Positions 6,001 to 52,445 of a stretch of 64,000 bases of DNA are shown here, one piece after another. A program made the translations under genes and the position numbers. The DNA is from Bacteroidota bacterium (GTDB taxonomy: Bacteria; Bacteroidota; Bacteroidia; Flavobacteriales_F; PHOS-HE28). Every line of letters begins with the position of its first letter. Position 1 is the stretch's first letter. The DNA lies in NCBI GenBank assembly GCA_018266475.1, contig JAFEAI010000244.1, forward strand, positions 8,391 to 72,390, given 5' to 3'. A model generated the notes under the pieces. It was not told the origin of the DNA. It ran no database searches and saw only the letters and a list, made by a program, of their open reading frames with translations.

Positions 6001-6547
6001 GCTCGCCGCCATGAAGGCCTCACTGCTGTACATGAAACGTGAAGGCCCCGCCTTGCAGGAACGGCTCAACGGGCTCACCCAAGGCATGGTGGAACGCGCC
6101 AATGCGCTCTTCGACCGCTACCAGCTTCCGTACCGCTGGGTACACTTCGGCAGCGCATTCAAGACCAAGTACGACGAAAGCGTCAACTACACCGAGTTCT
6201 TCTTCATGCTGATGCGCCTGCATGGCGTGCATGTGCTGGACTTCCCGCACTTCCTCACCACGGCGCACACGGAAGCGGACGTGGAATTCATCCTCACCGC
6301 CCTGGAGAACACCTGCAAGGAATTGCGCAACAGCGGCTTCATGCCGGAGCGCACCTATCCCCTGGCCGTGGTCAACAGCACCTTGAACGGGCACGCCTTC
6401 AAGCCAAGTGAACTGGTGGTAGAGGCCAGTGAACCGCCCGTGCCCGGCGCCCGCCTGGGCCGTACGCAGGAAGGCGAGCCCGGCTGGTTTGTTCCCGACC
6501 GTGAGCGGCCGGGAAAATTCATTCAACTCGTGGAGCACGGACAATGA
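2..6547 (+). CDS. Hybrid NRPS-PKS megasynthase, 5'-truncated at window start. Domain order: A (partial) - PCP - KS - AT - ACP - class III PLP aminotransferase (AMT). No KR/DH/ER seen.
   Basis: ORF has no start codon at the window edge. A-domain cores LYVLFTSGSTGRPKGV (A3), NQYGPTE (A5), YKTGDRAAELPNGEIDYKGRIDGQVKVRGYRIELGEVE (A7/A8). PCP FFDLGGNSL (~nt 1665-1697). KS DIAIIGMSGRFPG, DTACSTSL (Cys codon ~2391), HGTATPLGDP. AT GHSIGEF (~3751-3771). ACP LGLDSLFLTQV (~4722-4742). C-terminal ~530 aa aminotransferase-III-like (DGNEYVDILSGFGSSMFGY, YGKVIGGGMPIGA with PLP-Lys candidate ~5845). Confidence 0.9.
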   Translation: MLTPLGNRTGNIFDLLLPHLQSSPSAPAITAGGTTLSRAQIAAQVSCMAGHLHKHGLAPGQTVAICLDRSPELIIAVLGIVQAGAAYVPIDPAYPVERIAGMLEDAKPPVVITSKEHRHLFTGTAAKVLLIEDIDLLTLPPLSQGEWAPCPATPDDLLYVLFTSGSTGRPKGVAMHHAPLTNLIQWQLRTSVCGEGDRTLQFAPISFDVSFQEIFTTFAQGGTLVLITDEDRLNSTQLLRKIIAEKINRIIVPFVALQYLAEAVERTGEVPSTLKEVFTSGEQLKITPAIINLFKQLPGVRFCNQYGPTEGHVVSELELKGDPSTWPALPNIGKAIDNVKLLVLDEQMKPVKKGEEGELYLGGACVAKGYIGRDDLTAERFLADPFVKPPFGSAQGRLYKTGDRAAELPNGEIDYKGRIDGQVKVRGYRIELGEVEVAMEKHRAVEQAVANVREDRPGLKRLIGYYVAKQDVSVNELRKHLASLLPDYMVPSAFVAVKELPRTPSGKIDRKALPAPDVKRPELDVAFAAPQSAVQKTLANVWADLLGIDRVGIDDNFFDLGGNSLLSIQCVAQLEGHGLKLPIVKLYQHPTVRACAAFLEDDTNAVSPAEMAKARVGARHVSPEKRDIAIIGMSGRFPGAANVEELWLNLLAKKNSISRWTADEIDPSVPAELRNDPDYVKARGVIADADKFDAGFFGVNPKVAALMDPQQRVFLETAWAALEDAAYDPAQFAGLIGVYAGMGNNTYYTRNVIGHPELIEQVGDFQVMTANEKDYIATRLAFEFDLRGPAISMNTACSTSLVAIAQAFQALRAGECDMALAGGIAITAPINSGIVYNEGGMYSPDGSTRTFDAEGKGTSFSDGVGIIVLKRLDDAIRDNDHIYATIKGAALNNDGSDKASFTAPSVRGQAEVIAMAQADAGVSPDQISYVEAHGTATPLGDPIEVEALTLAFRSENQKIRKSENGNAPHCTIGSIKSNIGHLTAAAGAAGVIKTALALQQEQIPASIGYEKPNPAIDFANSPFRVAQDNIAWPRTDAPRMAGVSSFGVGGTNAHVIMAEPPVLAASGASRSKQLFFLSAKSKTSLDAMTENFRQWLAAHPDASLADAAYTLQVGRRHFKHRRLIVGGSHGEVIDAIANKDAQLIGTRELHEAAPGVVFMFPGQGSQYVHMGRDLCESEPVFKQHFDHCCELFGKELGTDLKAIIFPKAGEEEKAAGQLKQTIYTQASLFTMHYSLAKLWMYWGITPDAMMGHSIGEFAAACLAGVFSLEDAVKLVANRGRMMQELPGGSMLSVRATEEDVAKKLPAGCSIAANNGTQLCVASGPHEAIAKLQAELEKEGITCKLLVTSHAFHSPMMDAMVAPYKKVVESVKLNAPRIPIISTVTAQWLKDDEAVSPKYWSDHLRATVRFAQAVKFAWDDANRVMLEVGPRTTATTLARQQSSDAKKQAAVPSLGDSAGNGNELAQLLKAVGGLWQSGVLIDWKKFHEREERRRISLPTYAFERVRHWVEPVALQGVNRHDGRELPSIASIPAPHTDAGLSPKDQLIAQIKHLLEESSGLELAEASNEETFLEMGLDSLFLTQVATSLSKKFGVKISFRQLNEELPNLEKLAEHFLANGVGSVVSSQLSVVSARTTDNQQPTTASALEDAPELKKAFGAQARISKEKADDFTPQQRAWFTDFVKRYTAKTAKSKAFTQENRKPMADPRVVTGFKPQTKELTYQVVVDRSKGCHLWDIDGNEYVDILSGFGSSMFGYMPDFIKEACHDQLEKGTEIGPMHPLAAEVSKLLCELTGAERAAVCNTGSEAVLGAMRMARTVTGRSLIISFSGSYHGINDEVILRGSKSHKSYPGAPGIMPEAVHNMLVLDYGTPESLEIIKQHCHEAAAVLVEPVQSRRMEFRPVDFLREVRRITKEHGTALIFDEVITGFRMHPNGAQGLFGIKADIGTYGKVIGGGMPIGAMIGSRPWMDALDGGDWRFGDDSVPEAGVTYFAGTFVRHPLTLAAMKASLLYMKREGPALQERLNGLTQGMVERANALFDRYQLPYRWVHFGSAFKTKYDESVNYTEFFFMLMRLHGVHVLDFPHFLTTAHTEADVEFILTALENTCKELRNSGFMPERTYPLAVVNSTLNGHAFKPSELVVEASEPPVPGARLGRTQEGEPGWFVPDRERPGKFIQLVEHGQ
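4862..4928. repeat. In-frame palindromic heptamer-repeat block (AGTTGTC/GGTTGTC units then reverse complement GACAACGGACAACCAACAACCAACAACTG) inside the NRPS-PKS ACP-AMT linker; encodes SQLSVVSARTTDNQQPTT.
   Basis: Direct reading: cagttgtcagttcacagttgtcggttgtcagtgcccggacaacggacaaccaacaaccaacaactg. Same heptamer family as the arrays at 32796-32892 and 35461-35480. Confidence 0.7.
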
Positions 6548-6584
6548 CCCCGGGCTTCCGTTTTACTCCCACCGCAGCGTGACC

Positions 6585-9500
6585 ATGGAAAAGTTCATCC
6601 CGGAAACCACCGCCGTGCCTGTTGCCCATGATCCGTTCAGCGGCCCCGCCATCCAGCGGACCATCCCCACCACGGAATCGCAGATGGAGGTGTTTGCCGC
6701 CTCGGAGATGGGCAACGAGGCCAATTGCGCATACGTGGAAAGCATTTCGCTGGTGCTCACGGGCAAGCTGGTACAACCGGCCCTGGAAACGGCGCTTCAG
6801 GACCTGACCGCGCGCCACGAAAGCCTGCGCAGCACCATCAGTCCCAACGGCATGCGCATGGTGGTGCTCGAACGGATGACCCTCCCCACCCCGTTCGAAG
6901 ACCTCTCCGGCATTGATGAACCGGCCCGGCGCTCGCGCATGGAGCAGCTTGCCGAAGAGGACATGCGCCGGCCTTTCGACCTGGTGAGCGGCCCATTGTT
7001 CAGGGTATCCCTCACCAAGATCGCACCCGACCGGCACGTGCTGCGCCTGAGCGGCCACCACGCCGTGCTGGACGGGTGGAGCCTCGGCATCCTGATGGCC
7101 GAGATCAGCGCCCTCTACAATGCGCGCTTGGCCGGCACCGCACCGGCCCTTCCTGCGGCGGATCCGTTCAGCCGCTACGTGCGGGAAACCATTGCGTTTT
7201 CCAAGAGCAGTGCGCAGGCCGCCGTAGAGCAATACTGGACCGGACTGTACAGGGATTCCGTGCCGCGCCTGGACCTGCCCACGGACCGGCCGCGGCCGGT
7301 GCCCAAAACCTTCAACGGCCACCGCCTGGACCTTGCGATGGACCGGGAACTTGTGCGCGGCCTGAGATCCGTGGCCACGCGCAACGGCGCAAGCTTCGTC
7401 ACCACCCTGCTTTGCGCATTCGAACTGCTGCTGCACAAGCTCACCGGCCAGCACGAAATTGTGACCGGGCTGCCTGCGGCAGGCCAAAGCGACCTGGGCA
7501 TGAAGCACCTGGTGGGGCACTGTGTAAACCTGCTCGCCCTGCGCAGCCGGATCGATGACGAAGAATCCTTCGACCAATACCTGAAGCAGCGCCGCACCGA
7601 GGTGCTCGATGCCTTCGACCACCAGAAGTACACCTTCGGGACGCTGCTGCAAAAACTGAAGGTGCCGCGGGAGCCGGGCCGCATTCCACTGGTGCCCGCC
7701 GTGTTCAACATCGACATGAACATGGACGACGGGGTGTCCTTCACCGGGCTGGCACACCGCTTCGTGAGCAACCCCAGGCACTACGAAAACTTCGAGCTTT
7801 TCCTGAACGCCACCGGGCAGGGCGACGACCTGGTGCTGGAATGGAGCTATAACACGGACCTCTTCGACAAAGCGACCATCCGCAGTTGGATGGACCAGCT
7901 ATCCACCCTGGTGCGGCGGATCGGCGGCAACAGCGCCCTGCCGATCGGCGCCCTGTTGGGCGAGGAAGAACCTTCCGCCCATAAAATGCCTTTGCCCGAA
8001 TGGCACGGCACCGCCACGGACATCCCGCGCGGAACCAGCATCGGCGCATTGTTCGACGAAGTGGCCGCCGCACACCTCGCAAGCCCCGCGCTAGTAGCAC
8101 CGGACGGCGAATGGAGCTACGCGAAATTGCACGACCGTACACTGTCCATGGCATCGGCACTGCTGGCGGCAGGCGTAAAACCCGGCGACCCGGTGGGCCT
8201 GTGCACCGACCGTTGCGCGGACATGGTTGCGGCCATGCTTGCCATCCTGCGCTGCGGTGCCGCCTTTGTGCCCTTCGACCCCGCCTACCCCGCCGACCGC
8301 CTGGAGTACATGTTGCAGGACACGGGCATCCGCGTGCTGATCACGCAACGGCACCTTTCGGCGGCCTTGCCCAGGCATGATGCACGCACCTTGTTCGTGG
8401 AAGACCTGCACGGTGCCGAAGCCCCGCAGCCCGCCGCCGGCGGCCCTGATTCACCGGCGTACATCATGTACACCTCCGGTTCCACGGGCAAGCCCAAGGG
8501 CGTGGTGGTGCCGCACCGCGCCGTGATCCGCCTGGTGCGCAACCAGAACTTCCTGCCCTTCGGACCCGACCTCACCTTTCTGCAACTTTCCAATATCTCC
8601 TTTGACGCCTCCACACTGGAGCTATGGGGAGCGCTCCTGAACGGGGCACGGCTTGTGCTGCAACCCCAGCAGAAGCCAACCCTGCAGGAGGTCATCGACA
8701 CCATCCACAAGCACCGTGTGACCACGGTATGGTTCACCGCGGGCCTGTTCAACCTGATGGTGGACGAGCACCTGGAACAATTGCACGGCCTCAGGCACAT
8801 CCTGGCCGGCGGCGATGCGCTCAGCGTGCCCCACGTAAAGCGTGCCCTGCGCACCTTGGGGCCAGGCATACTGATCAACGGGTACGGCCCCACAGAGAAC
8901 ACCACCTTCACCTGCTGCCATGCCATAAATGATTTGCAGGCCCTGCAAACCCGCGTGCCCATCGGCAAACCCATCGCGAACACCACGGCCTACATCCTGG
9001 GCCCCGACATGCAGCCGGTGGCCATAGGGGAGAAAGGCGAACTGTACACCGGTGGCGAAGGCGTTGCCCTGGGGTACTGGCAGCAGCCGGAACTGACCGC
9101 CGCGCAATTCATTCCGGACCCGTTCAGCAAGCATCCGAACGCCAAGCTCTACCGCACGGGCGACCAGGTGCGGTGGCTGCCCGACGGCACCATCGACTTC
9201 CTGGGCCGCGGCGACGGCCAGGTGAAGGTGCGCGGATTCCGCGTGGAGCTCGGCGAGATCGAGAACGCCATCAGCGCGGTGGCTGGCGTGAAGGACCGCG
9301 TGGTGGTTGCGCGCAACGACGGGCCCGGGGAAAAACAACTGGCGGCCTACTTGGTGCCGGCACAGCATGCGGGCGACGGTGACGCCCAGGAAGCACTGAT
9401 CAAGCAAGTGCGCGACCACCTGCGCCAAACCTTGCCGGACCACATGGTGCCTTCGGCCTTCGTGATCCTTGCCGAGCTGCCGCTTACCGCAAACGGAAAG

Positions 9501-10535
9501 GTGGACAAACGGGCATTGCCGATTCCTGAACACCGGTCGCAGACCTTGGCGGCGGGCCATGTGGCACCGCGGAACGACAAGGAGGAACGCATCGCGGAGA
9601 TCTGGGGCCAGCTGCTGAACGCACCCGGAATCGGCGTACACGACAACTTCTTCGACCTTGGCGGCCATTCCCTGATCGGCATCCAGCTGCTGGCGCGCGT
9701 GGAGGAGCAGTTCGGCAAACGCCTGCCACTGAACTCCCTGTTCCAGGCGCCCACCGTGGCGGCATTCGCCAAATTGGTACACAGCAAGAACGCCGCCAGC
9801 GGCCTGAAAAACCTGGCCGCCCTGCAACCTGAAGGCACGCGCACGGCCTTCTTCTGCGTGCATGGCGATGAACTGAACCACCACATCATGCGCCACCTCG
9901 GCAAGGACCAGCCCTTCTTCGCCTTCTTCCACCAAGGAGAGAACGGGCAGCGGTTTGAGCACTTCACGGTGGAGGACATTGCCGCGCACTACATGCACGA
10001 ACTGCTTACGGTGCAGCCCGAAGGGCCTTTCCTGCTCGGCGGATATTCCTTCGGCGGGATCGTGGCGTACGAAATGGCCCAGCAGCTCACCAAGGCCGGG
10101 CATGAAGTGCCCTTCCTTGCCTTGTTCGACATGCCCGCGCCGGAATTGTTCGTGCAGAGCATGCGCAGCGAGCGCAAACTGCACGAACCCGTACGGGACG
10201 TGGTGGTCCGCTGGCTCGCAAAACGCGCGTTCGCCAAGGGGCGCATCCGCTCGCCGCGCCTGCAGCACTACTACATCATCGACAACTACAACAAGGCCAT
10301 CCAGGCGTACCGGCCAAAGCCGTACGGCGGGCCTGTCACGGTGTTCAAGGCCTCGGGAACCACAGGCCCGGACGACCTCGGCTGGGCCAAGCTGGTAACA
10401 GGCCCGTTGGACGCCCGCGTATTGCCGGGCGACCACTACAGCCTGATCAGGGAACCCGGGGTTGCGCGCTTAGTGAAGGAACTGGGCGCAGCCATCGACC
10501 GCTCCACCCTGCGGCATGCGGTGGAGGCCGTATAA
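6585..10535 (+). CDS. NRPS termination module: C - A - PCP - TE.
   Basis: ATG at 6585 (MEKFIPETT...), 38 nt after the upstream stop. The ORF-track start at 6429 lies inside the previous gene. C-domain HHAVLDGWS (~7058). A-domain [74 protein letters not shown] (~9647). TE GYSFGG (~10040). Confidence 0.9.
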   Translation: [1316 protein letters not shown]

Positions 10536-10537
10536 CC

Positions 10538-11287
10538 ATGCCCAGCCCCCGGACGCTCACCATACACTGCGCAGCTGCCGTACACGCCCGCACTGAACAC
10601 CCGCCACCGGGCGCGCCGGACAGCGCAGAAGCGTGGGTGTACTTCGGCAGCATCAGCTCCCTGGCGGCAAGAAGCGCGCACTTCCTTTCCCTGCTCGATG
10701 CCGAGGAGCTGGCACGCGCGGACCGCTTCCGGTTTGCCCAGGACCGTGAGCGCTTCATTGCGGGGCACGGGCTGCTGCGGGAGCTTCTGGGCCAACAACT
10801 TCACCGGCACCCCAAGGACCTGGTGCTGCTGCGCGGGGAATTCGGAAAACCCTTTCTGGAAGGAGGCCCGCTGCACTTCAACCTCAGCGACACCAAGGAT
10901 GCCGTCCTGGTGGCCTTCTCGCGGCAACCGATCGGTGCGGACATTGAAACGATCAACCGCCACACGGACCATGCCGCCGTGGCCAACCATTACTTCACGC
11001 CGGCGGAAGTGCGCAGCATCGCCACCGCCGTGGATGCCAAACGCAGGTTCCTGGAACTGTGGACGCGCAAGGAAGCCGTGCTGAAGGCCTGCGGCGTGGG
11101 CCTGATGGACGACCTGCAGAGCTTGGAGGTGAACGGGCCAACGAACTTGATGACGATCACCCACCCCGAATTCGTGCGGATGGCGGCGCCTGCATACTAC
11201 GTGCGGACCCTGCTGGCCGGCACGGACCACTTCATCAGCGTGGCCACGGCACAGGCGGTCCACTCGGTGCGGCTTTTCACCGCATAG
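10538..11287 (+). CDS. Sfp-type 4'-phosphopantetheinyl transferase.
   Basis: ATG 3 nt after the NRPS stop. Motifs GKPFL, FNLSDTKDAVLVAFSRQPIGADIE, WTRKEAVLKACGVG (W/FxxKEA..K PPTase signature). Position immediately downstream of the TE-ending NRPS. Confidence 0.8.
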   Translation: MPSPRTLTIHCAAAVHARTEHPPPGAPDSAEAWVYFGSISSLAARSAHFLSLLDAEELARADRFRFAQDRERFIAGHGLLRELLGQQLHRHPKDLVLLRGEFGKPFLEGGPLHFNLSDTKDAVLVAFSRQPIGADIETINRHTDHAAVANHYFTPAEVRSIATAVDAKRRFLELWTRKEAVLKACGVGLMDDLQSLEVNGPTNLMTITHPEFVRMAAPAYYVRTLLAGTDHFISVATAQAVHSVRLFTA

Positions 11288-40051: not shown

Positions 40052-41056
40052 ATGCCACTGCCCCTTGTCGCCATTTTCCGCGGCGGATATACCGGCGAGT
40101 CCGTCATCAGCCAAAAAAGCGCGCAGACCATGATGGACGCCATCGACACCTCCCGGTTCGATGCCGCTTTCGTTTCCGTAACCCCGGACGGCTGGGCCTG
40201 CCAGCGGGCCGATGGAGGCAATCTCCCGTTCGACCGCGGCCTCTTCACCGCCGACCGCGGCCACGGACCGGAACCCTTCGCCGCAGCACTGATCGCCATC
40301 CACGGCACCCCGGGCGAAGACGGCAAGCTACAGGGCTATTTGGACATGCTGGGCGTGCCCTACCAGACCGGCGGCGTGCTGAACATGGCCCTCACCATGA
40401 GCAAATACGGCACTACGGCCTTGCTCCGCCAGCTCGGCTTTCCCGTGGCCGCCTCCATCCGCGTACACCGCCACCAGCACGATGCCGCACAGCGCATCCT
40501 GGCGGAAGTGGGCCTGCCCTGCTTCGTGAAGCCGGACAACAGCGGCAGCAGCCTCGGCATCAGCAAGGTGAAAACCGGCGGGGAGCTTGGTCCCGCACTG
40601 GAAAAAGCATTCACGGAAGATACCTTGGTGATGTGCGAACGCGCCGTGAAAGGCCGCGAGCTCACCTGCGGCGTGATGGACCTGGGCGGAAAGACGCGCG
40701 CCCTGCCCGTGTGCGAGATCCGCACCACCCACGAGTTCTTCGACTATGAGGCCAAGTACCACGCCGCCGACACCCAGGAGCTTGTGCCCGCGCCCATTCC
40801 GGATGAGGTGGCCGCGGTGGTGCAGCAGCGTTCCGAGGCCATCTTCCAAGCCCTCAACTGCCATGGCCTGGTGCGCATAGACCACTTTTGGCTGGAAGGA
40901 CAAGGCGACGGCAAGGAGGTGGTCACCATTGAGGTAAACACGGTGCCGGGCTTCACGCCCGTGAGCATCTATCCGCGCATGCTGAAGGCCGCGGGAATGC
41001 CGGTGGAAGAGGCGGTGAACGGGTTGGTGGAGGGGATGGTTCAGCGGCAGGGTTGA
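40052..41056 (+). CDS. ddl: D-alanine--D-alanine ligase.
   Basis: ATP-grasp fold with CFVKPDNSGSSLGISKV and C-terminal NTVPGFTPVSIYPRM motifs. Start at the internal ATG giving MPLPLVAIFRGGYTGE. Confidence 0.9.
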   Translation: MPLPLVAIFRGGYTGESVISQKSAQTMMDAIDTSRFDAAFVSVTPDGWACQRADGGNLPFDRGLFTADRGHGPEPFAAALIAIHGTPGEDGKLQGYLDMLGVPYQTGGVLNMALTMSKYGTTALLRQLGFPVAASIRVHRHQHDAAQRILAEVGLPCFVKPDNSGSSLGISKVKTGGELGPALEKAFTEDTLVMCERAVKGRELTCGVMDLGGKTRALPVCEIRTTHEFFDYEAKYHAADTQELVPAPIPDEVAAVVQQRSEAIFQALNCHGLVRIDHFWLEGQGDGKEVVTIEVNTVPGFTPVSIYPRMLKAAGMPVEEAVNGLVEGMVQRQG

Positions 41057-41327
41057 CCACTGTGGGATGGCCCGGCCAGGCCGTGGCTGTTGCCACCTGT
41101 GTGCGGCAGGCCATCGGCATGCAATCCCCCTATTTCAACTGCGGACAGATGTACAGATGCCCTATCCGTTCAATCGGCCAATTGGGCATGGCCAACCGGT
41201 TCATAGATTTGGCTCCTGCACGCTTTGGCCACGCGGAACCTCCCGGCCATTCACATTGGAGAGGGGTATTGCAGCCAACCCCATGGATTGAGTTCCCTCC
41301 GGCATCGCTTTGAATTTGAACTCGAAA

Positions 41328-42800
41328 ATGAGCAACGAAGCATCCGGCCGCCAGGAGGCACCTGACCATCAAGCTCCGCGTCTCAACCCGTGGTGGCTCG
41401 TCCCGCTGTTCCTTGGGGCCCTGGCCGAGGCCATGCTTTTCTCGCACCTTATTGCCTGCGCCAACCCCGAGCTGCGGCCCGGCATTCTGGCCACTGTGGG
41501 CGGGGACACCCAATCCTATCTGCTGCCCATGGACCACCTGGTCGATGAAGGGCAGTATTACACGCTCAACATGCAGGGCGAAAAGACCTTGGCAGGCCGC
41601 ATGCCGTATTATGCCGTTCCATATCTCCTGCTTCGTTTGGCGGGCCTGCCGGCCGCCGATATCATGGCGGTGCTCCAGGCAGCCCTTTTCGCACTTGCCC
41701 TTTGGGCGCTCGCGGACCTGCTGGTGCGGGAAACACGATCCCGTTGGTGCGGCTATCTGTTCATGCTCGCAGGCGGGCTTTCGGGGCATTTTACGTCCTA
41801 CCTGCCCGCCATACTTCCGGATGCCATTGGCGCATCGCTTGCCGCATTGGCCATGCACCGGTTCTGGCTCACCGAAAAGCGCGACCGTGCAAGCGACCGC
41901 TGGTTGCTCGGCGGCATTTTGGCCGCCCTGATCCTGGTGAAACCCTATTTCGCCCCATTGATCGCACTGATCCCGCTCCGTTGGCTGTACAAAAGCCGCA
42001 ACCTCCGGCAAACTGCGGCCCGGTCGGTCATCCTGGCAACCCCGTTATTGATCATGCTTGCGCCATGGTGGATCCGCAACGCCCTGGTCATGGGCCGCTT
42101 TTTTCCGTTCCAGCAGGACATGTACGCCGGCTATGGCTACTCAAGCACCGAGTTGCGCAGCCGCAGCTTTGCGCAGGCGGCCGGTGAGGATGGCGTGGTC
42201 TGGTGGGATCCATATAGCATGGCCAGCTGCATGCGGCTGGACCCACAACCGCCTTCACGCTATACCTGGCCGGAATACTTCAAGGACGGAACCGTCGCGG
42301 GTTTCAATCAAGTGGTGGCCGCCTACAAGACGTTCCAGGCAGCCCCTACTCCCGAACATGCCGCTACCGCAGAAGCCTTGATGGACTCCGTGCAGAATGC
42401 CTACATACAGCAATATCCCCTGCATTACTATGTTACCAACCACTTCAATGCGCTGCCCCGGCTATTGTTCCATAGCGGATCCGCCAACCTTCCGGTGCAT
42501 GCGTCAAATCCTTGCTACGGCTCTTGGCAGTTCCTGCTCAAGCTAGCCGCCAGCCTGGCCTACTGGGCTTCATTGGCCGGTCTGCTGCTGGGGATTGCAT
42601 GGGCCTTTGCAGACCGCGCCGCCAATCTGTGGTTGTGGCTGGTGGTGCCCTTGTATCTGGCGCTCTTCTTCTCCTTAGTAGTGGTGGCCCCGGAATGGCG
42701 GTATTTCTCGGGCGCCTTCCTGATCGACCTTTGGTTGTTGTTCCGCATCGCACCTCCAGCCCTGCTGAAGGTCAAGGCGCGGCTTGCAAAAAGGACCTGA
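41328..42800 (+). CDS. Polytopic membrane protein resembling GT-C glycosyltransferases (ArnT/PMT/GT39-83-like), uncertain.
   Basis: ~12 predicted TM segments with loops between early helices, 490 aa. Adjacent to the ArnC-like/WecE-like/WecD-like genes. Family not verified. Confidence 0.4.
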   Translation: MSNEASGRQEAPDHQAPRLNPWWLVPLFLGALAEAMLFSHLIACANPELRPGILATVGGDTQSYLLPMDHLVDEGQYYTLNMQGEKTLAGRMPYYAVPYLLLRLAGLPAADIMAVLQAALFALALWALADLLVRETRSRWCGYLFMLAGGLSGHFTSYLPAILPDAIGASLAALAMHRFWLTEKRDRASDRWLLGGILAALILVKPYFAPLIALIPLRWLYKSRNLRQTAARSVILATPLLIMLAPWWIRNALVMGRFFPFQQDMYAGYGYSSTELRSRSFAQAAGEDGVVWWDPYSMASCMRLDPQPPSRYTWPEYFKDGTVAGFNQVVAAYKTFQAAPTPEHAATAEALMDSVQNAYIQQYPLHYYVTNHFNALPRLLFHSGSANLPVHASNPCYGSWQFLLKLAASLAYWASLAGLLLGIAWAFADRAANLWLWLVVPLYLALFFSLVVVAPEWRYFSGAFLIDLWLLFRIAPPALLKVKARLAKRT

Positions 42801-43905
42801 CCGCACCGGTTATTTGTTCCACTTGGCCGGTTTGCAAGGCTGCGAACAGGGGCAGCCGCAACAGGCGGTCGCTGTACAGGTCGCTCATGGGCAGGTCGCG
42901 TCCATCGTGCTTGTGTGCGTAAAACGGTGACTTGTGCAGGGATTGGTAATGGAATACCGCCATGATACCGCGCTCCCGCAGGTATTGCACCAGCGCGGTA
43001 CGTTCCTCCAGCGACCTGCAAAGAATGTGGAAGAGGTGGCCATTGCAGGTGGCATAGCCTGGCAGGAACGGGCCGCCCAATCGGCCTTGGCGGAACAGGT
43101 CCACCAAGCCTTCGGCATAAGCGTTCCAATTGGCGATCCGCCGTGCCTGTATCGCATCGATCCCCTCCAACTGGGCAAGCAGGAAGGCGGCATTGATCTC
43201 CGACGGCAGGTAGGAGGAACCGACGTCCACCCAATTGTACTTGGCCACTTCACCGCGCCAGAAGGCCGCCCTGTTGGTTCCCTTCTCCCAGATCACCTCC
43301 GCCCGCGCAGCCATGGAGGGGTCATTCACCACCAAGGCTCCACCCTCACCGCATTGCACGTTCTTGGTTTCATGGAATGAGAAGGTGCCCAAGTGGCCGA
43401 TCCCGCCCAGCGGCCTTCCCTTATAGCGCGATTCAATGGCTTGTGCCGCATCCTCCACCACCTTCAACCCATGCGCACCGGCAATGGCCATGATCTTGTC
43501 CATGTCGCAGGCCACTCCGGCATAATGTACCGCCACAATGGCCTTGGTGCGCGGTGTGATCAGCTCCTCCACACCTTCTTCATCCATCCCCGGATGGTCC
43601 TTCCGGCTATCGACGAAAATGATCTTGGCCCCGCGCAGCACAAACGCATTTGCCGTGCTTACGAACGTATAGGAGGGCATGATCACTTCATCCCCCGGCT
43701 GTATGTCCAGCAGCAATGCACACATCTCCAAGGCATCGGTGCAGGAGGTGGTGAGCAGCACGCGCTGAAAACCGTACCTCTTCTCCATCCAGGCCTGGCA
43801 CCGTTGCGTGAACTGGCCGTTGCCGGAAAGCTTGTTGCGCTGCACCGCTTCATTTACGTAGCGATACTCATTGCCGGTGAGGTAGGGAACATTGAAGTCG
43901 ATCAT
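42772..43905 (-). CDS. DegT/DnrJ/EryC1/StrS-family sugar aminotransferase (WecE/ArnB-like).
   Basis: MIDFNVPYLTGNEYRYVNEAV N-terminus; PLP-Lys region FSFHETKNVQCGEGGALVVND. Confidence 0.85.
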   Translation of the reverse strand: MIDFNVPYLTGNEYRYVNEAVQRNKLSGNGQFTQRCQAWMEKRYGFQRVLLTTSCTDALEMCALLLDIQPGDEVIMPSYTFVSTANAFVLRGAKIIFVDSRKDHPGMDEEGVEELITPRTKAIVAVHYAGVACDMDKIMAIAGAHGLKVVEDAAQAIESRYKGRPLGGIGHLGTFSFHETKNVQCGEGGALVVNDPSMAARAEVIWEKGTNRAAFWRGEVAKYNWVDVGSSYLPSEINAAFLLAQLEGIDAIQARRIANWNAYAEGLVDLFRQGRLGGPFLPGYATCNGHLFHILCRSLEERTALVQYLRERGIMAVFHYQSLHKSPFYAHKHDGRDLPMSDLYSDRLLRLPLFAALQTGQVEQITGAVRSFLQAAP

Positions 43906-44072
43906 GGAAGTTGCGATGGTCACTTTGCACCGTGCCCGGGGAACCCATCCCCGGCGAAGATCGGAACTGCCACGCCAACACATGGCAGAACGTCGGGCGA
44001 AACCGACAAGCGAAGGTGGCGGATGGCCCTTTCGGCCCACTTCACCGCGCCCGGAGCATGGAAGGGCCCCAT

Positions 44073-44804
44073 CTACCTGCCGTTGGGAAAAAGATGGTAT
44101 ACATCAATTACCTCAATGATGTGAAAACCCTTCTTTCCATAGAAACGCATCGCATCCACATTCTCAGCCTGGGTAGGCACCTGTAATGTCCACACTTCCC
44201 GGCCAGCAAGGTATTGGAACACCTGGCCAAGCAGCTTGCCCCCAATGCCCTCACCCTGATGCCCCGGGGATACTGAAAGCAAGCCGATCCTGCCCACGCC
44301 GTCATTCACTGAAACCGTGATGAGGCCGACCAATGCCCCATCCATCTTGTACACGAACACCTCATCCGCCAATTCACGCTTCACCGACCGCGCCAGCCAG
44401 GTTTCATACATCGCCCGGTATTGCCCATCGCTGATCCCCGGGTCAACCTTGAAGCGTGAGTGCGCGCCACAGATATATGCCAGCTCCATGAGTTCCGTGA
44501 TCCGGGCTTCACCTGTGTACGGCGCAATGCTCGGGTCATGTGCCAGGGGGGCTGGCGGCACCTTCCGTTCAAACAGCACCGTGGAAGGCATCTTACGCCC
44601 ACCATGTCGTTCCAACATCTTCGGGTCCACCAATTCGCCCCCCGGGGCGAACAAATAGATCATGCCATAGCCGTCTTTCACGGCATTGCGCAATCCTGCG
44701 CCCAACCACGCCCGGTCGTGTCCCCCTGGCAGGCGGATGCGGCCTGTCCGGCGACCAAAATGTTCACTGTCCCAAGCCAGATGTTCCACTACGTACATGG
44801 TCAT
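44073..44804 (-). CDS. GNAT-fold acetyltransferase, candidate dTDP-4-amino-4,6-dideoxy-sugar N-acetyltransferase (WecD-like).
   Basis: GNAT motif region GLLSVSPGHQGEGIGGKLLGQ...AENVDAMRFYGKKGF; 243 aa; flanked by the WecE-like and ArnC-like genes. Confidence 0.5.
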   Translation of the reverse strand: MTMYVVEHLAWDSEHFGRRTGRIRLPGGHDRAWLGAGLRNAVKDGYGMIYLFAPGGELVDPKMLERHGGRKMPSTVLFERKVPPAPLAHDPSIAPYTGEARITELMELAYICGAHSRFKVDPGISDGQYRAMYETWLARSVKRELADEVFVYKMDGALVGLITVSVNDGVGRIGLLSVSPGHQGEGIGGKLLGQVFQYLAGREVWTLQVPTQAENVDAMRFYGKKGFHIIEVIDVYHLFPNGR

Positions 44805-45721
44805 TCATTCAGGACCTTGTCCACAATGTACACGGGCCGGCTCTTCACCTTTTCGAATACCTTGCCCAAGTACAACCCCAATACCCCAAGAATGAAAATG
44901 GCCAACCCGCTAAAAAACCAGATGGAAAGAATGAGGCTTGCGTAACCAAGTACAAGTATCTCCCCGCGCAAGTACTTGACCAGGAAGTATCCTCCCATTA
45001 TGAAAGCCGCGGCGGAAATGAACAAGCCCAACCGTACGGTTAGGCGCAATGGCTTATCCGAAAAGGCTATGATATTATTGAAAGCGAGGTCCAACATTTT
45101 TGACCACGTATAAGACGACCCCCCTTCCGGGCGGGCAGCATGCTCCACATCCACCGTGGCCCGCTTGAACCCCACCCATTGGCTCATGGTAGGAAAAAAG
45201 CGGATCTGATCTCCCATGGATAGAATGGCCTGGATCACCCGTTGGTGGTAGATTCCGAAGTTGGCAACGCTGGGATCTTGCGTGCTATCGGTCAAATAGC
45301 TGAACAGGCTGTAAAACACCCTTGAACTTATCCGCTTAAACCAGCCGTCCATTCTTACCGAGCGGCGTGCCAACACAAGGTCATTTCCTTCCAACGCCTT
45401 GGCCAATAGCCCCGGTATCTCTTCCGGCTTGTCTTGAAGATCGCAGTCCATGACCACCACCCAAGCTCCCCTTGCCGCCGCCAGACCTGCCGTGATGGCA
45501 TAATGCTGGCCGAAGTTTCTGCTCAACTTAATTCCCTTTACACGTGGATGTTCCCCACAGATCCGTTCAATTGCCGCCCAAGAACCGTCGGGGCTTCCGT
45601 CCTCCACCAGGATAACCTCATATTCATCGGTTACCAACCTCACACTTCGATTGATCCGCGCCACAAGCTCCGTAACCAAGTTTTCCGCCCGGTATACCGG
45701 GCTCACGACAGATAAGTACAT
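44801..45721 (-). CDS. Polyprenol-phosphate glycosyltransferase (GT2, ArnC/GtrB-like) with C-terminal TM helices.
   Basis: MYLSVVSPVYRAENLV...EVILVEDGSPDGS...DCDLQD and two C-terminal TM segments. Confidence 0.8.
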   Translation of the reverse strand: MYLSVVSPVYRAENLVTELVARINRSVRLVTDEYEVILVEDGSPDGSWAAIERICGEHPRVKGIKLSRNFGQHYAITAGLAAARGAWVVVMDCDLQDKPEEIPGLLAKALEGNDLVLARRSVRMDGWFKRISSRVFYSLFSYLTDSTQDPSVANFGIYHQRVIQAILSMGDQIRFFPTMSQWVGFKRATVDVEHAARPEGGSSYTWSKMLDLAFNNIIAFSDKPLRLTVRLGLFISAAAFIMGGYFLVKYLRGEILVLGYASLILSIWFFSGLAIFILGVLGLYLGKVFEKVKSRPVYIVDKVLNE

Positions 45722-46174
45722 CGAATCAACAGAGTTGGGTGCGTCCTGCGCAGGTGATGACCGTTGTGCTGTTCAGTTACGTGCATGCAGGACAACTGGA
45801 CGGGGAGCGCAATCGCGATTACGAGCCGTCGCCTTCATTTTCCGGGCTGATCGAACATGCTTCACCGTGCCAAACTAAGCCGCTGAACGGAAGTTCCAAC
45901 CAAGCCCCCATGGAATGGCTCCGACAGATTGCCCAATTTCTTCTCCACCGCAACTGCGAGCTGATCCAGGAACCGCCCCCGCCCCACTCGTTCGTGAAGA
46001 TCGGCCACGGGCTTCCATGCCACTCGGCCAAGGGCTGTACACGCTTTGGGGCATGATCGGAAATTACCAACGGGAGCCCCGGAACGAATGGCCTGCCATA
46101 GCAAGCCGCTAGGCATGCCGAACGACTTGTACTTGGCGGATTCGATTCATCTTGCTTGTGGCCTGCAAAGTAAG

Positions 46175-46750
46175 TCACCGCTCCGCCAAAAACCGCACCA
46201 GCTTCCACACCGCATGCCCCCGGTGGCTGATGGCATTCTTATGCACGTTGTCCAGCTCCGCAAAGGTGAGGTCGCTCATTTCCGGAAGAAAAACGGGATC
46301 ATAGCCGAATCCGTTTGTGCCACGAAGCTCCGTGGTGATGGTCCCGCGCACTTCACCCTCGAATACATGCTCGCCACCGCTATCCACATAGGCGATCACC
46401 GTGCGGAAACGGGCACGCCGGTCCGCCGTGCCCTCCAATTCGTGCAGCAGCTTGGCCATGTTGGCCCGGTCATTCTTTTGCGGACCCGCGTAAAATGCCG
46501 TATCCACGCCCGGCGCACCGTTCAGTGCCTGCACCTCCAGTCCCGAATCATCGGCGATGCACGGCAGGCCGGTGCGCGCAAAGGCGAAGCGCGCCTTCTG
46601 CAGGGCGTTCTCCGCAAAGGTGTGGCCGGTTTCGGGAAGGTCGGTGGGAAGGCCCGCGCCCTGCAAGGTGAGCAGCTCCATGCCGGAGGGCAGCAACTTC
46701 CGCAGCTCGGCGAGCTTGCCAGGATTGCCGGTGCAAAGAAGAAGGCGCAT
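46175..46750 (-). CDS. rdgB: Non-canonical purine NTP pyrophosphatase (RdgB/HAM1).
   Basis: MRLLLCTGNPGKLAELRKLL, FGYDPVF, typical Ham1 layout. Confidence 0.85.
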   Translation of the reverse strand: MRLLLCTGNPGKLAELRKLLPSGMELLTLQGAGLPTDLPETGHTFAENALQKARFAFARTGLPCIADDSGLEVQALNGAPGVDTAFYAGPQKNDRANMAKLLHELEGTADRRARFRTVIAYVDSGGEHVFEGEVRGTITTELRGTNGFGYDPVFLPEMSDLTFAELDNVHKNAISHRGHAVWKLVRFLAER

Positions 46751-47110
46751 GCGGCAAAGATGAGGGCCGCATCCGATGCATCCGCTTTTATGCGCCTTCC
46801 CATACGTCGCACACCGCATCTCCTGCCTTGGCCGCAGGTCATGTGAGTTGCGAAGACCCTCAATTCATAAAATGATGCAACGCAGATTCCGCTTGCCAAC
46901 ATCCAAGGCCGCCATGTACATTTGCGGGGCCGTTGCCTCCAGGTATTGAAAATAGAGAGGCGCGTGCAACCCGTGAGGAACTCCTGCAACCAGCTGTGCC
47001 GCATGTCGAAGGCCGACTCCATCAAGGGTTTGGCGGACGCCTCAGGCACCGTGTTGCGGTAGCGCGCCAGCCAGCAAGGCCGCCCCTCCACCGTAACATC
47101 CCAAAACTCC

Positions 47111-48889
47111 ATGCCGAACAGCGCGCGGAAGAGGATACTGTATATAGCCGAAGGGCAACTGCCCGCAAGCGACCCGTTCAATAAGCAGATCCAAGCTGCC
47201 GGCGGGGTGAACGACTTCTTCTTCATTTCCATGGGAGACCGCTCCATCACAGGGCCGGGAGCGGATGCAGGGCCTGCCGGCGCCGGCCCTTCGCGCCGTG
47301 CTTCACTCCAGCTCCCGCCCAACGCCGCCCAAGGAAAAGTGGATGCCATGCTGCACCGCCAATTGCGGCTGTGGGGAGCCCCTTTTGACCTGGTACACCT
47401 GCAGGACCTCACGCCGGCCACACTGGCCATTGCCACAAGCAAGCACTTGCAAGGCATTCCTAAGGTGCTTTCGGTTCATGGCGCACCAGCAGGCCCGGTG
47501 ATGCCCATGTTGCCTCAGCACGCTGGGTCCTTCAACCTGGAACCCTGGCTGAAGGCGGCCGGGATCGTTCACGTGCTTGCCGCATCGCCTCAACTAAAGG
47601 AACTTCTGATCGCCAAATTCGGGGTTCCGGCGGAAAAACTTCGCACCATGCCCGGAACCGCCACCGGGGACCAGGCCGGCTGGTTGCCGGGAATCTATCT
47701 TGAAACCTTGATGACCAGCGGAAAACTCCCCGGGGAAAGGCCGTACCGCCAATGCACCCATTGCGTACTGGACACCAACGATGACAAGTTCATCCAGTTT
47801 GATGAGGCCGGAGTGTGTACCTACTGTCACTGGTACCAACGTGAGGACCCGCGCAACATGTTCAAGGGAAAGGACCGGGAAAAGATGCTTGCCGACCTGG
47901 TGGCCCGCATCAAACGGGAACGCAAGCACCCCAAATACGACTGCATTGCCGGCGTGAGCGGCGGCGTGGACAGTTCCTACACTGCGCTGAAACTGAAGGA
48001 GCTCGGCCTTACCCCGTTGCTGGTACACTTGGACAACGGCTACAATTCGGAGGTCTCCAACAGCAACGTGCAACGCATGGTGGAGCACCTCGGGTTCGAC
48101 CTGCACAACCATGCCCCCGACTGGGAAGAATTCAAGAACATCCAACTGGCTTTCCTGCGCGCCTCGGTGATGGACATTGAACTGGTGACCGACCATGCCA
48201 TGGTGGCCTACCTCTTCAACCTTGCGGCCAAGCTCGACATCAAGTTCATCATCTCCGGGCACAACTTCGCTACCGAAGGCATCCTTCCCGAAGGCTGGTA
48301 CCAGGACAAAATGGACCTGCTGAACATCCGCGCCATTGCCCGCCGCTTCGGTGGTGTCCGCTTGCACCACCTGCCCCGCCTCAGCTACTGGCGGCGCCAA
48401 TACCTCTATCTTTTCAAGGGCTTCGAAGGGGTGAAGTTGCTGAACTATCTGGATTACGACACCGTGAAGGCCAAAGAGGAGATCATCGCCAAATTGGGTT
48501 GGAAGGACTACGGTGCCAAGCATACCGAATCCATCTTCACCCGGTTCTACCAGAACTACATCCTGCCCACCAAGTTCCACATCGACAAACGCAAGGCGCA
48601 CCTGGCCACGCTGATCTGCTCGGGCACCATGGACCGCCAAACGGCCCTCAACGAACTGGCCAAGCCGCCATACACACCGGAGGAATTCAAGGCCGACCTC
48701 GAATTTGTGACCGGAAAGCTCGGGATCACGGTGGACGAGTTCAACGCCATGATGAAGGCGCCCATCCGTGACCACCTGGAGTTCCCCTCGTACATCACGC
48801 GGCACTACCGCTGGGAAAGGGAATGGGCGCCGCGCCTGAGGCCGCTGACCCGCCTGGTAAAGCGCGTGGTGATCAGGCAGCAGGCATAA
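47111..48889 (+). CDS. N-acetyl-sugar amidotransferase (WbpG/WbuX-type PP-loop ATPase; domain from ~47711) fused in-frame to an N-terminal GT4-N-like domain (47111-47710).
   Basis: Amidotransferase part: zinc-ribbon CTHCVLDTNDDKFIQFDEAGVCTYCHWY and PP-loop GVSGGVDSSY. N-terminal part: KRILYIAEGQL..., SVHGAPAG..., VHVLAASPQLKELLIAKFGVPAEKL resemble the N-terminal half of GT1/GT4 enzymes without the C-terminal EX7E half. An internal ATG at 47711 could be the true amidotransferase start. Confidence 0.65.
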   Translation: MPNSARKRILYIAEGQLPASDPFNKQIQAAGGVNDFFFISMGDRSITGPGADAGPAGAGPSRRASLQLPPNAAQGKVDAMLHRQLRLWGAPFDLVHLQDLTPATLAIATSKHLQGIPKVLSVHGAPAGPVMPMLPQHAGSFNLEPWLKAAGIVHVLAASPQLKELLIAKFGVPAEKLRTMPGTATGDQAGWLPGIYLETLMTSGKLPGERPYRQCTHCVLDTNDDKFIQFDEAGVCTYCHWYQREDPRNMFKGKDREKMLADLVARIKRERKHPKYDCIAGVSGGVDSSYTALKLKELGLTPLLVHLDNGYNSEVSNSNVQRMVEHLGFDLHNHAPDWEEFKNIQLAFLRASVMDIELVTDHAMVAYLFNLAAKLDIKFIISGHNFATEGILPEGWYQDKMDLLNIRAIARRFGGVRLHHLPRLSYWRRQYLYLFKGFEGVKLLNYLDYDTVKAKEEIIAKLGWKDYGAKHTESIFTRFYQNYILPTKFHIDKRKAHLATLICSGTMDRQTALNELAKPPYTPEEFKADLEFVTGKLGITVDEFNAMMKAPIRDHLEFPSYITRHYRWEREWAPRLRPLTRLVKRVVIRQQA

Positions 48890-50197: not shown

Positions 50198-51289
50198 ATG
50201 CGCCTGGAAAATCGGACCATCCTCATTACCTCCAACGAACCCTGGGGCGATGTGTGGTATTCCAAACACAACTATGCGAACGAGCTCGCGAAGGACAACG
50301 ATGTGATCTTCATTGACCCACCCGGGCGCTGGCGCCCCGCAGCGTTGGCCGGTGCGGCGCCAGTGCTCCTGCCCATCTCACCGCAGCTCCATGTACTCCG
50401 GTACCGCAATGTGCTGCCGGCGTTGAACATGGCCTTGTTCCGGCTGAACAACCGCATTGTATCCAGGGCCATACGCATGCTACTGCGTAGCACGGGCCGC
50501 AAAGAAAACCTGCTGCTCGCATTCGACCCCTTCCGGCTTGTTGACCCCGCGCAGCTGGACGCGGAGCGCTCCGCGTTCTTCGCTGTGGATGCCCACGTAA
50601 TGACCACCCTGGGCGAGCGGTGCATCTATCGCAACGTGGACAAGATCATCAACATCTCCCCCGCACTCAACGAACGGTACCTACCCTTTGGCAAACCCAT
50701 GCTCACCCTGGACCATGCCATACCCGCAGACCAGTTCGGCACCAAGCCCAAACCTACGGGCCATGCGGGCCACGGCCTGTTTGTGGGCAACCTGGACGCA
50801 CGCCTGGACCTTCCCTTCATCCGGCGCATGGCGGAAACGTTCCCCAACGTGCCCTTTGTCTTTATCGGCCCCTATGCGCTGCATGGCCGGCCGGAGGCCG
50901 ACCTCCTCTTCCGGAGCGGTGCTTTCAGGAACGTACACCACCACGATTCCGTTCCCTTTAAGGAACTGGGCGGGTACATCGCCGATGCCAGCTTCTGCCT
51001 GGCACCCTTGAATGTCCAGGACCCGCGCAATGCCATCTCGCACCACAAGATCTTCCACTACCTGGCGTTGGGAAAGCCCGTCTTCAGCCCTGTTTTCTCA
51101 GCATACCTCCCCATCGCCGATCTGCTGTACATGAACAACGATGCGGATGCGCTGCTGGCGCAGTTGGCGGAATTCCTGCGGCAGGGGGAAGCACCGGAGC
51201 TTACCGCCAAGCGCATTTCCTTTGCGCGCACCCGGACGTACGACCATAACCTAGCGGCGATCGCCAACTTCCTGCTCGCGCCGAAATGA
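50198..51289 (+). CDS. Glycosyltransferase, TuaH-like (GT1/GT4 fold), paralog 1.
   Basis: N-terminus ILITSNEPWGDVWYSKHNYANELAK. ~45% identical by eye to the downstream paralog. Confidence 0.5.
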   Translation: MRLENRTILITSNEPWGDVWYSKHNYANELAKDNDVIFIDPPGRWRPAALAGAAPVLLPISPQLHVLRYRNVLPALNMALFRLNNRIVSRAIRMLLRSTGRKENLLLAFDPFRLVDPAQLDAERSAFFAVDAHVMTTLGERCIYRNVDKIINISPALNERYLPFGKPMLTLDHAIPADQFGTKPKPTGHAGHGLFVGNLDARLDLPFIRRMAETFPNVPFVFIGPYALHGRPEADLLFRSGAFRNVHHHDSVPFKELGGYIADASFCLAPLNVQDPRNAISHHKIFHYLALGKPVFSPVFSAYLPIADLLYMNNDADALLAQLAEFLRQGEAPELTAKRISFARTRTYDHNLAAIANFLLAPK

Positions 51290-51353
51290 GGCACTCCGAC
51301 CCATCCATGCGCCGCACCAGTGCATGGCATTGCCCCCCGAACTGCCCCCGCGC

Positions 51354-52445
51354 ATGAAGCTCGAGGGCTTGAACATCCTGATCACCTCCAACGAACCTTG
51401 GGGTGAAGTGTGGTTCTCCAAGCACCATTACGCCAATGAGCTGGCCAAGCACAACCAGGTGGTGTTCGTAAACCCTACGGCACCTTGGAGGCCGGGCATG
51501 ATCGGAGGGGCGGGCGTTTCCCTGCAGCGCGTGCAGCAAAACCTGCATGTGCTCAACTACCGCAACCTGCTGCCGGCCTTTCATGACCTGCCCTTCTCCC
51601 TGAACAACGCCTTTGTCTCCCGTGCCATCCGGAATGCGCTGCACACCAAGAACCTGGTGCCGGACATTTACATAGCCTTCGACCCTTCACGCCTGTACAA
51701 CCCGAAGCTGTTGGGGGCCAAGCGTTCCGTGTTCTTCGCCGTGGATGATTACGCCATGACCATCCGGGGAGAATGCTTCATCTTCCCCAACGTGGACCGC
51801 TTCATCACCTTGTCGGAATCGTTCAACCGCACGTACGCCCCATACAACAAGCCCATCCTCACCATCAGCCATGCCATCGCCGCTGAGGCGTTCCAGGCCG
51901 AACCTGCACGTTTCGGTGTTACCGAATACGGACTGTACATCGGCACCATGGACCGCAGGCTTGACCTGGAGCTGATCCGCAGCCTGGTCACAGACCAACC
52001 ACACACCCCCTTCGTGTTCGTGGGCCCGTATGCGCTCGAAGGCAGCCAGGCCGCAAATGAACTCTTCCGGCAAGGGAAGTACCCCAACGTACACCTTGTG
52101 GGCACCGTACCCTCGCGCAACTTGGCGGCCTACATTGCCGGTGCCCGCTTCTGCCTGGCCCCCATGGACATCAAGTTGCACGGAAACAGCATATCGCACC
52201 ACAAGATCTTCCAGTACCTCGCCTTAGGCAAGCCCGTGTTCTCCACCACCTTCACTGAATATGCGCCCATAGCGCAATTGCTGTACATGAGCAACGATGA
52301 GGCCACCACCCGCGCACGCCTTGGCCGATTCCTTGCCGCAGGAGAACCGGAAGATCTTCCAACGGATCGCATCGCCTTCGCCCGTACCAAAACGTATGAT
52401 GCGCTACTGGTTGAAATAGGTGATTTCCTGGACGTGCGGGCCTGA
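51354..52445 (+). CDS. Glycosyltransferase, TuaH-like, paralog 2 (tandem duplicate).
   Basis: ILITSNEPWGEVWFSKHHYANELAK; colinear with 50198..51289. Start chosen by alignment with the paralog (MKLEGLN). Confidence 0.5.
   Translation: MKLEGLNILITSNEPWGEVWFSKHHYANELAKHNQVVFVNPTAPWRPGMIGGAGVSLQRVQQNLHVLNYRNLLPAFHDLPFSLNNAFVSRAIRNALHTKNLVPDIYIAFDPSRLYNPKLLGAKRSVFFAVDDYAMTIRGECFIFPNVDRFITLSESFNRTYAPYNKPILTISHAIAAEAFQAEPARFGVTEYGLYIGTMDRRLDLELIRSLVTDQPHTPFVFVGPYALEGSQAANELFRQGKYPNVHLVGTVPSRNLAAYIAGARFCLAPMDIKLHGNSISHHKIFQYLALGKPVFSTTFTEYAPIAQLLYMSNDEATTRARLGRFLAAGEPEDLPTDRIAFARTKTYDALLVEIGDFLDVRA

Follow-up and report, generated by a model that had tools for sequence, protein, structure and literature searches.

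The window, a stretch of 64,000 nucleotides of DNA from a Bacteroidota bacterium (assembly GCA_018266475.1, contig JAFEAI010000244.1), carries at 47111-48889 a gene in which the N-terminal half of a family 4 glycosyltransferase (GT4; GT, glycosyltransferase) precedes a WbuX/WbpG-type N-acetyl-sugar amidotransferase (NASAT). The start codon of this open reading frame (ORF) is the first one past the upstream stop, and homologues of the 592-residue product begin with matching MP(N/T/A)(S/T)ARK(R/K) residues. Acetamidino sugars shape O-antigens, capsules and flagellar glycans. To our knowledge, neither the true substrate of the NASATs nor the pathway stage at which they act has been established. 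The structure and function of these enzymes are little known (PMC10607449).

Two modules in one protein

The C-terminal part of the protein is an amidotransferase. Residues 214-549 match the NCBIfam family TIGR03573 (WbuX) from position 3 to the last position, 344, of the profile, with E = 2.7e-81 and 273.7 bits, where the family cut-off is 203.2 bits. Two motifs define the NASAT family, the PP-loop SGGXDS and the zinc tetracysteine CXXCXn[GN]XCXXC (PMC10607449), and both are found in the sequence (Table 1). An alignment of 102 homologues has 33 invariant columns, and the window protein conforms to every one of them. When the whole chain was compared with known structures using Foldseek, the best match was the Legionella NASAT 8wex (E = 1.5e-15, template modelling (TM) score for the target, TMt, 0.64-0.67, 385-396 aligned columns), and other PP-loop enzymes ranked after it. 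Because every defining feature that can be tested is present, the protein is a bona fide member of the NASAT family. The zinc-ribbon and PP-loop amidotransferase that a preliminary description of this DNA had recognised at the C-terminus is thus borne out by the full-profile match and by both motifs.

The stand-alone NASATs WbpG (Pseudomonas aeruginosa O5), WbuX (Escherichia coli O145) and LpNASAT (Legionella pneumophila, 8WEX) have the TIGR03573 domain, both motifs and the fold in common with the window protein, and its gene, like theirs, lies in a surface-polysaccharide cluster; the identity to 8wex is only about 19%. The stand-alone enzymes differ in that they lack the N-terminal half-GT4 module of about 200 residues. 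Adjacent HisH/HisF-like genes are typical of WbpG and WbuX loci, although they do not define the family. Neither the window ORFs that were scanned nor six related loci contain such a gene (PF00117/PF00977). The lack of adjacent HisH2/HisF2-like (WbuY/WbuZ-like) genes sets the window locus apart from that of WbpG in Pseudomonas, which is proposed to get its ammonia from HisH2/HisF2 (PMC11445079; gene list for comparison in PMC11340318), and implies that the window enzyme would use ammonia from the free pool or from a distant partner. A Tannerella cluster has an AsnB-type enzyme in the place of the NASAT.

The N-terminal part matches the Pfam family PF13439 (Glyco_transf_4) at residues 80-181 (profile 63-163 of 170, E = 5.4e-12, 46.5 bits, cut-off 28.5), and the Pfam scan found no C-terminal GT1/GT4 domain (PF00534/PF13692) in the 592-residue protein. 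The earlier view of a GT half without its matching C-half is therefore upheld. The AlphaFold2 (AF2) model of the whole chain, built on the 102-sequence alignment, has a mean predicted local distance difference test score (pLDDT) of 90.6 and a predicted TM score (pTM) of 0.90; the high pTM suggests a fixed arrangement and packing of the two domains. Strands of the N-module lie at residues 7-14, 34-41, 61-66, 94-98, 118-122, 152-157 and 177-179 in the AF2 models, and its conserved positions are F92-D-L-V-H96, P117 and G171-V-x-A-E175-x-x-R178-x-x-P181. Residues 1-212 modelled alone (pLDDT 82.6, pTM 0.83) keep the seven-stranded alpha/beta layout of the whole chain, with a confident terminal helix. 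Confidence is low only in a Gly/Pro/Ala-rich insert at residues ~42-60, which replaces a longer strand-loop segment of the long forms described below (alignment columns 50-95), and in a loop at about 130-140.

A Foldseek search with the N-module alone retrieved GT4 enzymes first. The top matches are the retaining GT4s MshA (3c48/3c4q) and the Rickettsia GT 7mi0 (for the latter E = 1.2e-5, TM score for the query, TMq, 0.57, TMt 0.34), and the N-module covers no more than about half of each of these enzymes. Across the GT4 structures TMq lies at 0.52-0.58 and TMt is low, about 0.3, which indicates that the N-module spans half a GT-B fold. Because a C-terminal donor-binding domain with the E-x7-E motif was sought and is not present, the window protein is not a functional GT4 enzyme. 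The idea that the half-GT and the Rossmann domain of the PP-loop module together mimic a GT-B enzyme was rejected, as the whole-chain Foldseek matches to the GT-B enzymes 6eji and 1f6d superpose poorly (root-mean-square deviation >20 Å, TM only 0.2-0.3).

Descent from a longer fusion

The homologue search, which covered 5.8 billion proteins, revealed about 25 proteins of 750-810 residues with a full GT4 (PF13439 plus PF00534) ahead of WbuX. Within the fusions of 780-790 residues (such as P0009, P0011, P0012 and P0017, from Flavobacteriales/Cryomorphaceae-like metagenome-assembled genomes), the WbuX module is 57-63% identical to that of the window protein, and the homologous N-domain, the chromosomal slot beside rdgB and the helix that leads into the zinc ribbon are the same in both. 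What the window protein lacks is their PF00534 GT-B C-terminal domain of ~180 residues with its E-x7-E motif. Each of the short forms is likewise without one contiguous block of ~180 residues, corresponding to the whole GT-B C-terminal Rossmann domain (alignment columns 217-395); the E-x7-E segment, which reads 'AENLPCVIIES' in the long forms, is part of that block. The N-domain of the short forms stops at the canonical 'GVxAExIRxxP' strand, and the last helix 'LxxIYxETL' (residues 191-202) is kept and leads straight into 'RPYxQCxxC'. In the alignment this helix falls on the final one ahead of the zinc ribbon of the long forms, with L192, Y196 and E198 conserved; AF2 predicts it at a pLDDT of about 95, whether the whole chain or the N-module alone is modelled. 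It is presumably the C-terminal helix of the GT-B fold, which packs back onto the N-domain.

The short architecture (553-610 residues) occurs in at least 12 clusters with 47-97% identity to the window protein at a coverage of 95-99%, and the P0007 group has the same deletion with 84% of the window protein covered. The protein P0001 (97% identical) is encoded on 15 contigs that come from different sequencing runs and were independently assembled. DNA was compared across the junction for three of these 15 contigs (L001-L003), where the gene likewise measures 1779 nt and differs from that of the window by substitutions only, with no indel. It follows that the junction is not an assembly artefact, an error that the preliminary description had wished to see excluded. 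A recent deletion scar, a frameshift-repaired pseudogene or a mis-assembly peculiar to the source genome would be suggested only by the unusual architecture and by a nearby 5.1 kb indel (see below). We rejected it in view of the 15 contigs and of an architecture common to proteins 47-60% identical; the ORF is also intact, with all catalytic motifs present, and the likelihood of such an accident is close to nil.

The long form P0009 (loci L006/L007), the short forms P0001 (L001), P0007 (L088) and P0016 (L089), and a stand-alone WbuX protein, P0015 (L090), are encoded in one chromosomal slot. Its order is pseudouridine synthase, a ~750-residue protein with a weak Por_Secre_tail match, a PASTA protein, Ddl and (Ham1-RdgB), then a variable polysaccharide locus. 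Because of this genomic context, the long, short and WbuX-only forms are positional orthologues. The L006/L007 locus ends with Methyltransf_23, SPOUT, DUF4783 and NadC genes, and Methyltransf_23 and NadC genes are also found at the far end of the window. In a tree of the WbuX module, all short forms fall within a clade that has long-form outgroups (bootstrap 90-91), and P0015 is nested in the short clade of the window protein (bootstrap 92%). The order of the three inner subclades has a bootstrap of 44% only; at least one deletion event took place, and one is not separable from two. When the N-module by itself was run through HMMER against 1.84 billion representatives, just two proteins matched, both of them long GT4-WbuX fusions with 35-38% identity over residues ~80-185.

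Since the short forms are nested among the long forms, the half-GT arose by deletion inside an existing fusion. The ancestor was a fused GT4-WbuX gene whose donor-binding domain was then lost by an old, domain-precise deletion in frame. The window protein is a C-domain-deleted derivative inside this unnamed GT4-WbuX fusion clade. The preliminary description had left the choice between a genuine fusion and a deletion scar. A fusion ancestor and a later in-frame deletion are both retained here, and the part that fell is a recent scar welding a decayed neighbouring GT gene to the amidotransferase, which is ruled out by a short architecture that proteins only 47-60% identical have in common, by the purifying selection on the N-module and by relatives of the N-module that are all N-domains of long fusions. 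A search for the fusion in related genomes, as had been proposed, found it in both short and long form, and separate full-length GT and amidotransferase genes are not what the relatives show.

The substitution pattern indicates that the N-module is under purifying selection. Compared with the 97%-identical allele, codons 1-196 contain 25 synonymous and 17 non-synonymous changes, corresponding to a ratio of non-synonymous to synonymous rates (dN/dS) of 0.21 with a significant synonymous excess (p = 2.8e-6). The WbuX module has a dN/dS of 0.10 against the same allele.

The most divergent segment of the 12.7 kb common to the window and L001 also lies inside the half-GT module (47320-47686, peak 47379-47679), with 35 mismatches per 300 bp at the peak against at most 14 elsewhere in the alignment. 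Because synonymous changes dominate, this patch probably stems from recombination with a more distant allele and not from positive selection.

A separate clade of WbuX proteins of 669-686 residues (P0074, P0076, P0077, P0091, P0107 and P0111) has a different N-terminal extension of ~295 residues. The extension of P0074 gives a weak GT2 (GT-A) signal (PF00535, E = 0.0025, below the Pfam cut-off), and P0111, which was scanned too, gives no GT2 signal. This clade may represent a second, independent kind of GT-WbuX fusion. Databases label the long and short GT4 fusions merely 'N-acetyl sugar amidotransferase', and our literature search found no described GT-NASAT fusion of either form.

Proposed role of the half-glycosyltransferase module

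We believe that the gene probably encodes an active NASAT with a retained, folded and non-catalytic half-GT module, which descends from the deleted fusion ancestor and likely serves in docking. The protein would be an ATP-dependent N-acetyl-sugar amidotransferase acting in a Wzx-type surface-polysaccharide locus of an uncultured Flavobacteriales-like member of the Bacteroidota. If it works as other PP-loop enzymes do, the WbuX module would use ATP to adenylate the carbonyl of an N-acetyl group on the sugar, and ammonia would then replace the carbonyl oxygen to yield an acetamidino sugar, AMP and pyrophosphate, in line with the chemistry proposed for NASATs (PMC10607449). As to its origin, the GT-B C-terminal nucleotide-sugar donor domain would have been removed in frame from a bifunctional GT4-WbuX ancestor, leaving behind the acceptor-side N-terminal domain and the final helix into the zinc ribbon. 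GT-B enzymes need the donor-binding domain for sugar transfer. With this domain and the E-x7-E motif gone, the N-module alone cannot be a glycosyltransferase, and it would persist, kept by purifying selection, as a folded domain that packs on the amidotransferase and catalyses nothing. As the helix ties WbuX to the N-domain side and the pTM is high, the modelled pair of N-domain and WbuX looks like a conserved structural unit. A docking or scaffold role is the most likely candidate: the N-module might hold the enzyme at the membrane, at partner glycosyltransferases or at its substrate, a lipid-linked glycan. It could also stabilise the WbuX fold.

A bolder version of this proposal seems doubtful to us. 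Here the N-half would still bind an undecaprenyl-diphosphate-linked glycan at the membrane, the acetamidino group would be put on the lipid-linked intermediate and not on a nucleotide sugar, and the recurrent WbuX fusions (full GT4, half GT4, GT2-like in the 669-aa class) would reflect an obligatory coupling of amidination to one glycosyl-transfer step.

Several observations weigh against a retained docking module on an active enzyme. The amidotransferase activity is a prediction for the window protein and its close relatives alike, and no sugar-nucleotide pathway pointing to the substrate was recognised in the core cluster. Divergence is far faster in the N-module, where pairs of proteins are 23-34% identical, than in WbuX, where the same pairs are 59-74% identical, and the window clade is without the Gly of the 'AG' motif after strand 1 that is present in the long forms. 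The sister lineage P0015/L090 has lost the N-module wholly, with no remnant detected upstream of the stand-alone gene by tblastn at E<0.5, so that the module is dispensable at least there. The fast divergence, the lost Gly, the disordered low-complexity insert and the P0015 lineage would also fit the main rival explanation, a vestigial remnant that has no function itself, is kept because its removal would harm expression or folding of the amidotransferase, and is being lost. That explanation is harder to reconcile with the dN/dS of 0.21 and its synonymous excess, with a fold and core motifs (FDLVH, GVxAExxRxxP and the last helix) that persist among proteins only 23-34% identical, with an architecture that at least 12 clusters, falling into two subclades, have kept, and with a confidently folded model. 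We consider it rather unlikely.

The use of a lone GT-B N-half as a non-catalytic membrane or recruitment module is known from the half GT-B subunits Alg14 and EpsE, which have Alg13 and EpsF as partners (PMC8993221), and the window protein shares this concept. Given that split GT-B enzymes exist and that the core N-domain motifs are retained, the N-half could be imagined to pair in trans with a separate GT C-half, leaving the protein bifunctional. Alg14 and EpsE are GT1/GT28-like and not GT4, and the half in the window protein is instead covalently fused to an unrelated enzyme. The Pfam scan gave no match to the Alg14 family (PF08660) at E<=1 in the window protein, which is not an Alg14-type subunit. 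The cluster contains no free-standing Alg13/EpsF-like gene for a C-half, its neighbouring genes all encoding full-size GT-B or GT-A enzymes with gaps below about 450 bp that are too short for one, and such a gene is likewise absent at the L001, L004, L088 and L089 loci. The missing Gly after strand 1 also speaks against a split glycosyltransferase, which we regard as very improbable.

With an active NASAT carrying a half-GT docking module as the preferred reading, the protein is a variant of a known enzyme family, neither a gene wreck nor a new system. One chromosomal slot offers a natural series of full GT4-WbuX, half-GT-WbuX and WbuX alone. This series makes testable both the physical coupling of amidination to a glycosyl-transfer step and the use of a GT-B N-domain without its donor-binding partner, and it may help to find out when in the pathway amidination occurs. 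The lineage is also a clean case of one domain being cut precisely from a multidomain enzyme while selection maintains the half left behind. In annotation, a Glyco_transf_4 match is no reason to count such proteins among the glycosyltransferases.

Upstream region and neighbouring genes

The non-coding stretch 46751-47110 separates two divergently oriented genes, rdgB/Ham1 on the minus strand, with the Ham1 domain in ORF 46175-46819, and the amidotransferase gene. This 360-bp gap had been taken as a sign of local rearrangement. We rejected that interpretation in view of 98.3% identity in L001, an unchanged length in the distant locus L088 and a conserved promoter-like motif, GCTTGCC-N19-TACATTTG, in an upstream alignment that took in five loci. 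The pattern occurs once in the window, where chance would give 0.01 matches, and the distant loci L088 and L004 also carry it. We take the motif to resemble the Bacteroidota-type promoter consensus (-33 TTG / -7 TAnnTTTG). No Rfam family matched 46600-47300, a region that includes the 5' untranslated region (UTR) of about 185 nt that such a promoter would leave. The gap is predicted to be a conserved promoter and 5'-UTR region.

Table 1 Features of the half-GT4/WbuX gene and its upstream region (window coordinates).
Feature	Position	Strand	Basis or remark
Promoter-like motif GCTTGCC-N19-TACATTTG	46891..46924	+	about 185 nt 5' of start codon; only conserved upstream block
Half-GT4/WbuX-type N-acetyl-sugar amidotransferase, complete gene	47111..48889	+	592 residues plus stop
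GT-B (GT4) N-terminal Rossmann-like domain, residues 1-196	47111..47698	+	Pfam, AF2 secondary structure, Foldseek
Low-complexity Gly/Pro/Ala-rich insert, residues 42-60, GDRSITGPGADAGPAGAGP	47234..47290	+	pLDDT 55-59 in residue blocks 41-60; predicted disordered
Divergent patch in N-module relative to the near-identical strain L001	47320..47686	+	42 of 54 gene differences; about 11% against about 1.4% elsewhere in locus
Deletion junction or short linker, residues 182-190, GTATGDQAG	47654..47680	+	alignment; ~180 residues here in full-length fusions
Last helix of GT module, retained, residues 191-202, GWLPGIYLETLM	47681..47716	+	alignment; pLDDT about 95
WbuX/WbpG-type NASAT module, residues 213-592	47747..48886	+	TIGR03573, Foldseek, invariant columns
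Zinc-ribbon tetracysteine C215-x2-C218 ... G234-x-C236-x2-C239	47753..47827	+	read off the sequence
PP-loop SGGVDS, residues 283-288, ATP pyrophosphatase signature	47957..47974	+	S283, G284, G285, D287 and S288 invariant

At the L090 locus (7006-8000), the WbuX gene of P0015 stands alone beyond a gap of ~570 bp. The gene caller gives a plus-strand ORF of 142 residues at the usual position of the minus-strand rdgB. Because the forward-frame translation there resembles the ORF antisense to rdgB in the window, rdgB is probably present on the minus strand of L090 and was mis-called.

The amidotransferase gene leads a plus-strand run of polysaccharide genes, which encode an FkbM methyltransferase, two tandem TuaH-like GT paralogues, a GT4, a GT2, a Wzx-type flippase and another GT2. 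Minus-strand genes for a GT4-like protein and a protein of 486 residues follow, and then a plus-strand Methyltransf_23 gene. The tandem paralogues (50198-51289 and 51324-52445, plus strand, ~365 residues) have weak TuaH-like/Glyco_trans_1_4 similarity in their C-halves only, and L001, L089 and L090 also have the pair next to the fusion gene. Both paralogues probably encode divergent GT-B glycosyltransferases.

Between Ddl and rdgB, a 5.1 kb block (41049-46178) is missing from the otherwise 98-99.7% identical strain L001. The block contains a 293-residue ORF without a known family and genes for a WecE-type dTDP-4-amino-4,6-dideoxyhexose transaminase (556 bits against a cut-off of 375), a WecD-like GNAT acyltransferase and a PgfS/ArnC-like polyprenyl-phosphate GT2. 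Its guanine and cytosine content is 0.55-0.59, compared with ~0.62 in most of the window, and it looks like a horizontally acquired glycan-decoration module.

A hybrid polyketide synthase-nonribosomal peptide synthetase (PKS-NRPS) system lies at 2-11287 (plus strand). Its 2181-residue ORF contains fatty-acyl-AMP-ligase-like AMP-binding, carrier protein, ketosynthase, acyltransferase and class-III aminotransferase domains, and beyond it are a 1368-residue NRPS module (condensation, adenylation, thiolation and thioesterase domains) and a 4'-phosphopantetheinyl transferase. The domain order recalls the starter modules of beta-amino-fatty-acid lipopeptides.

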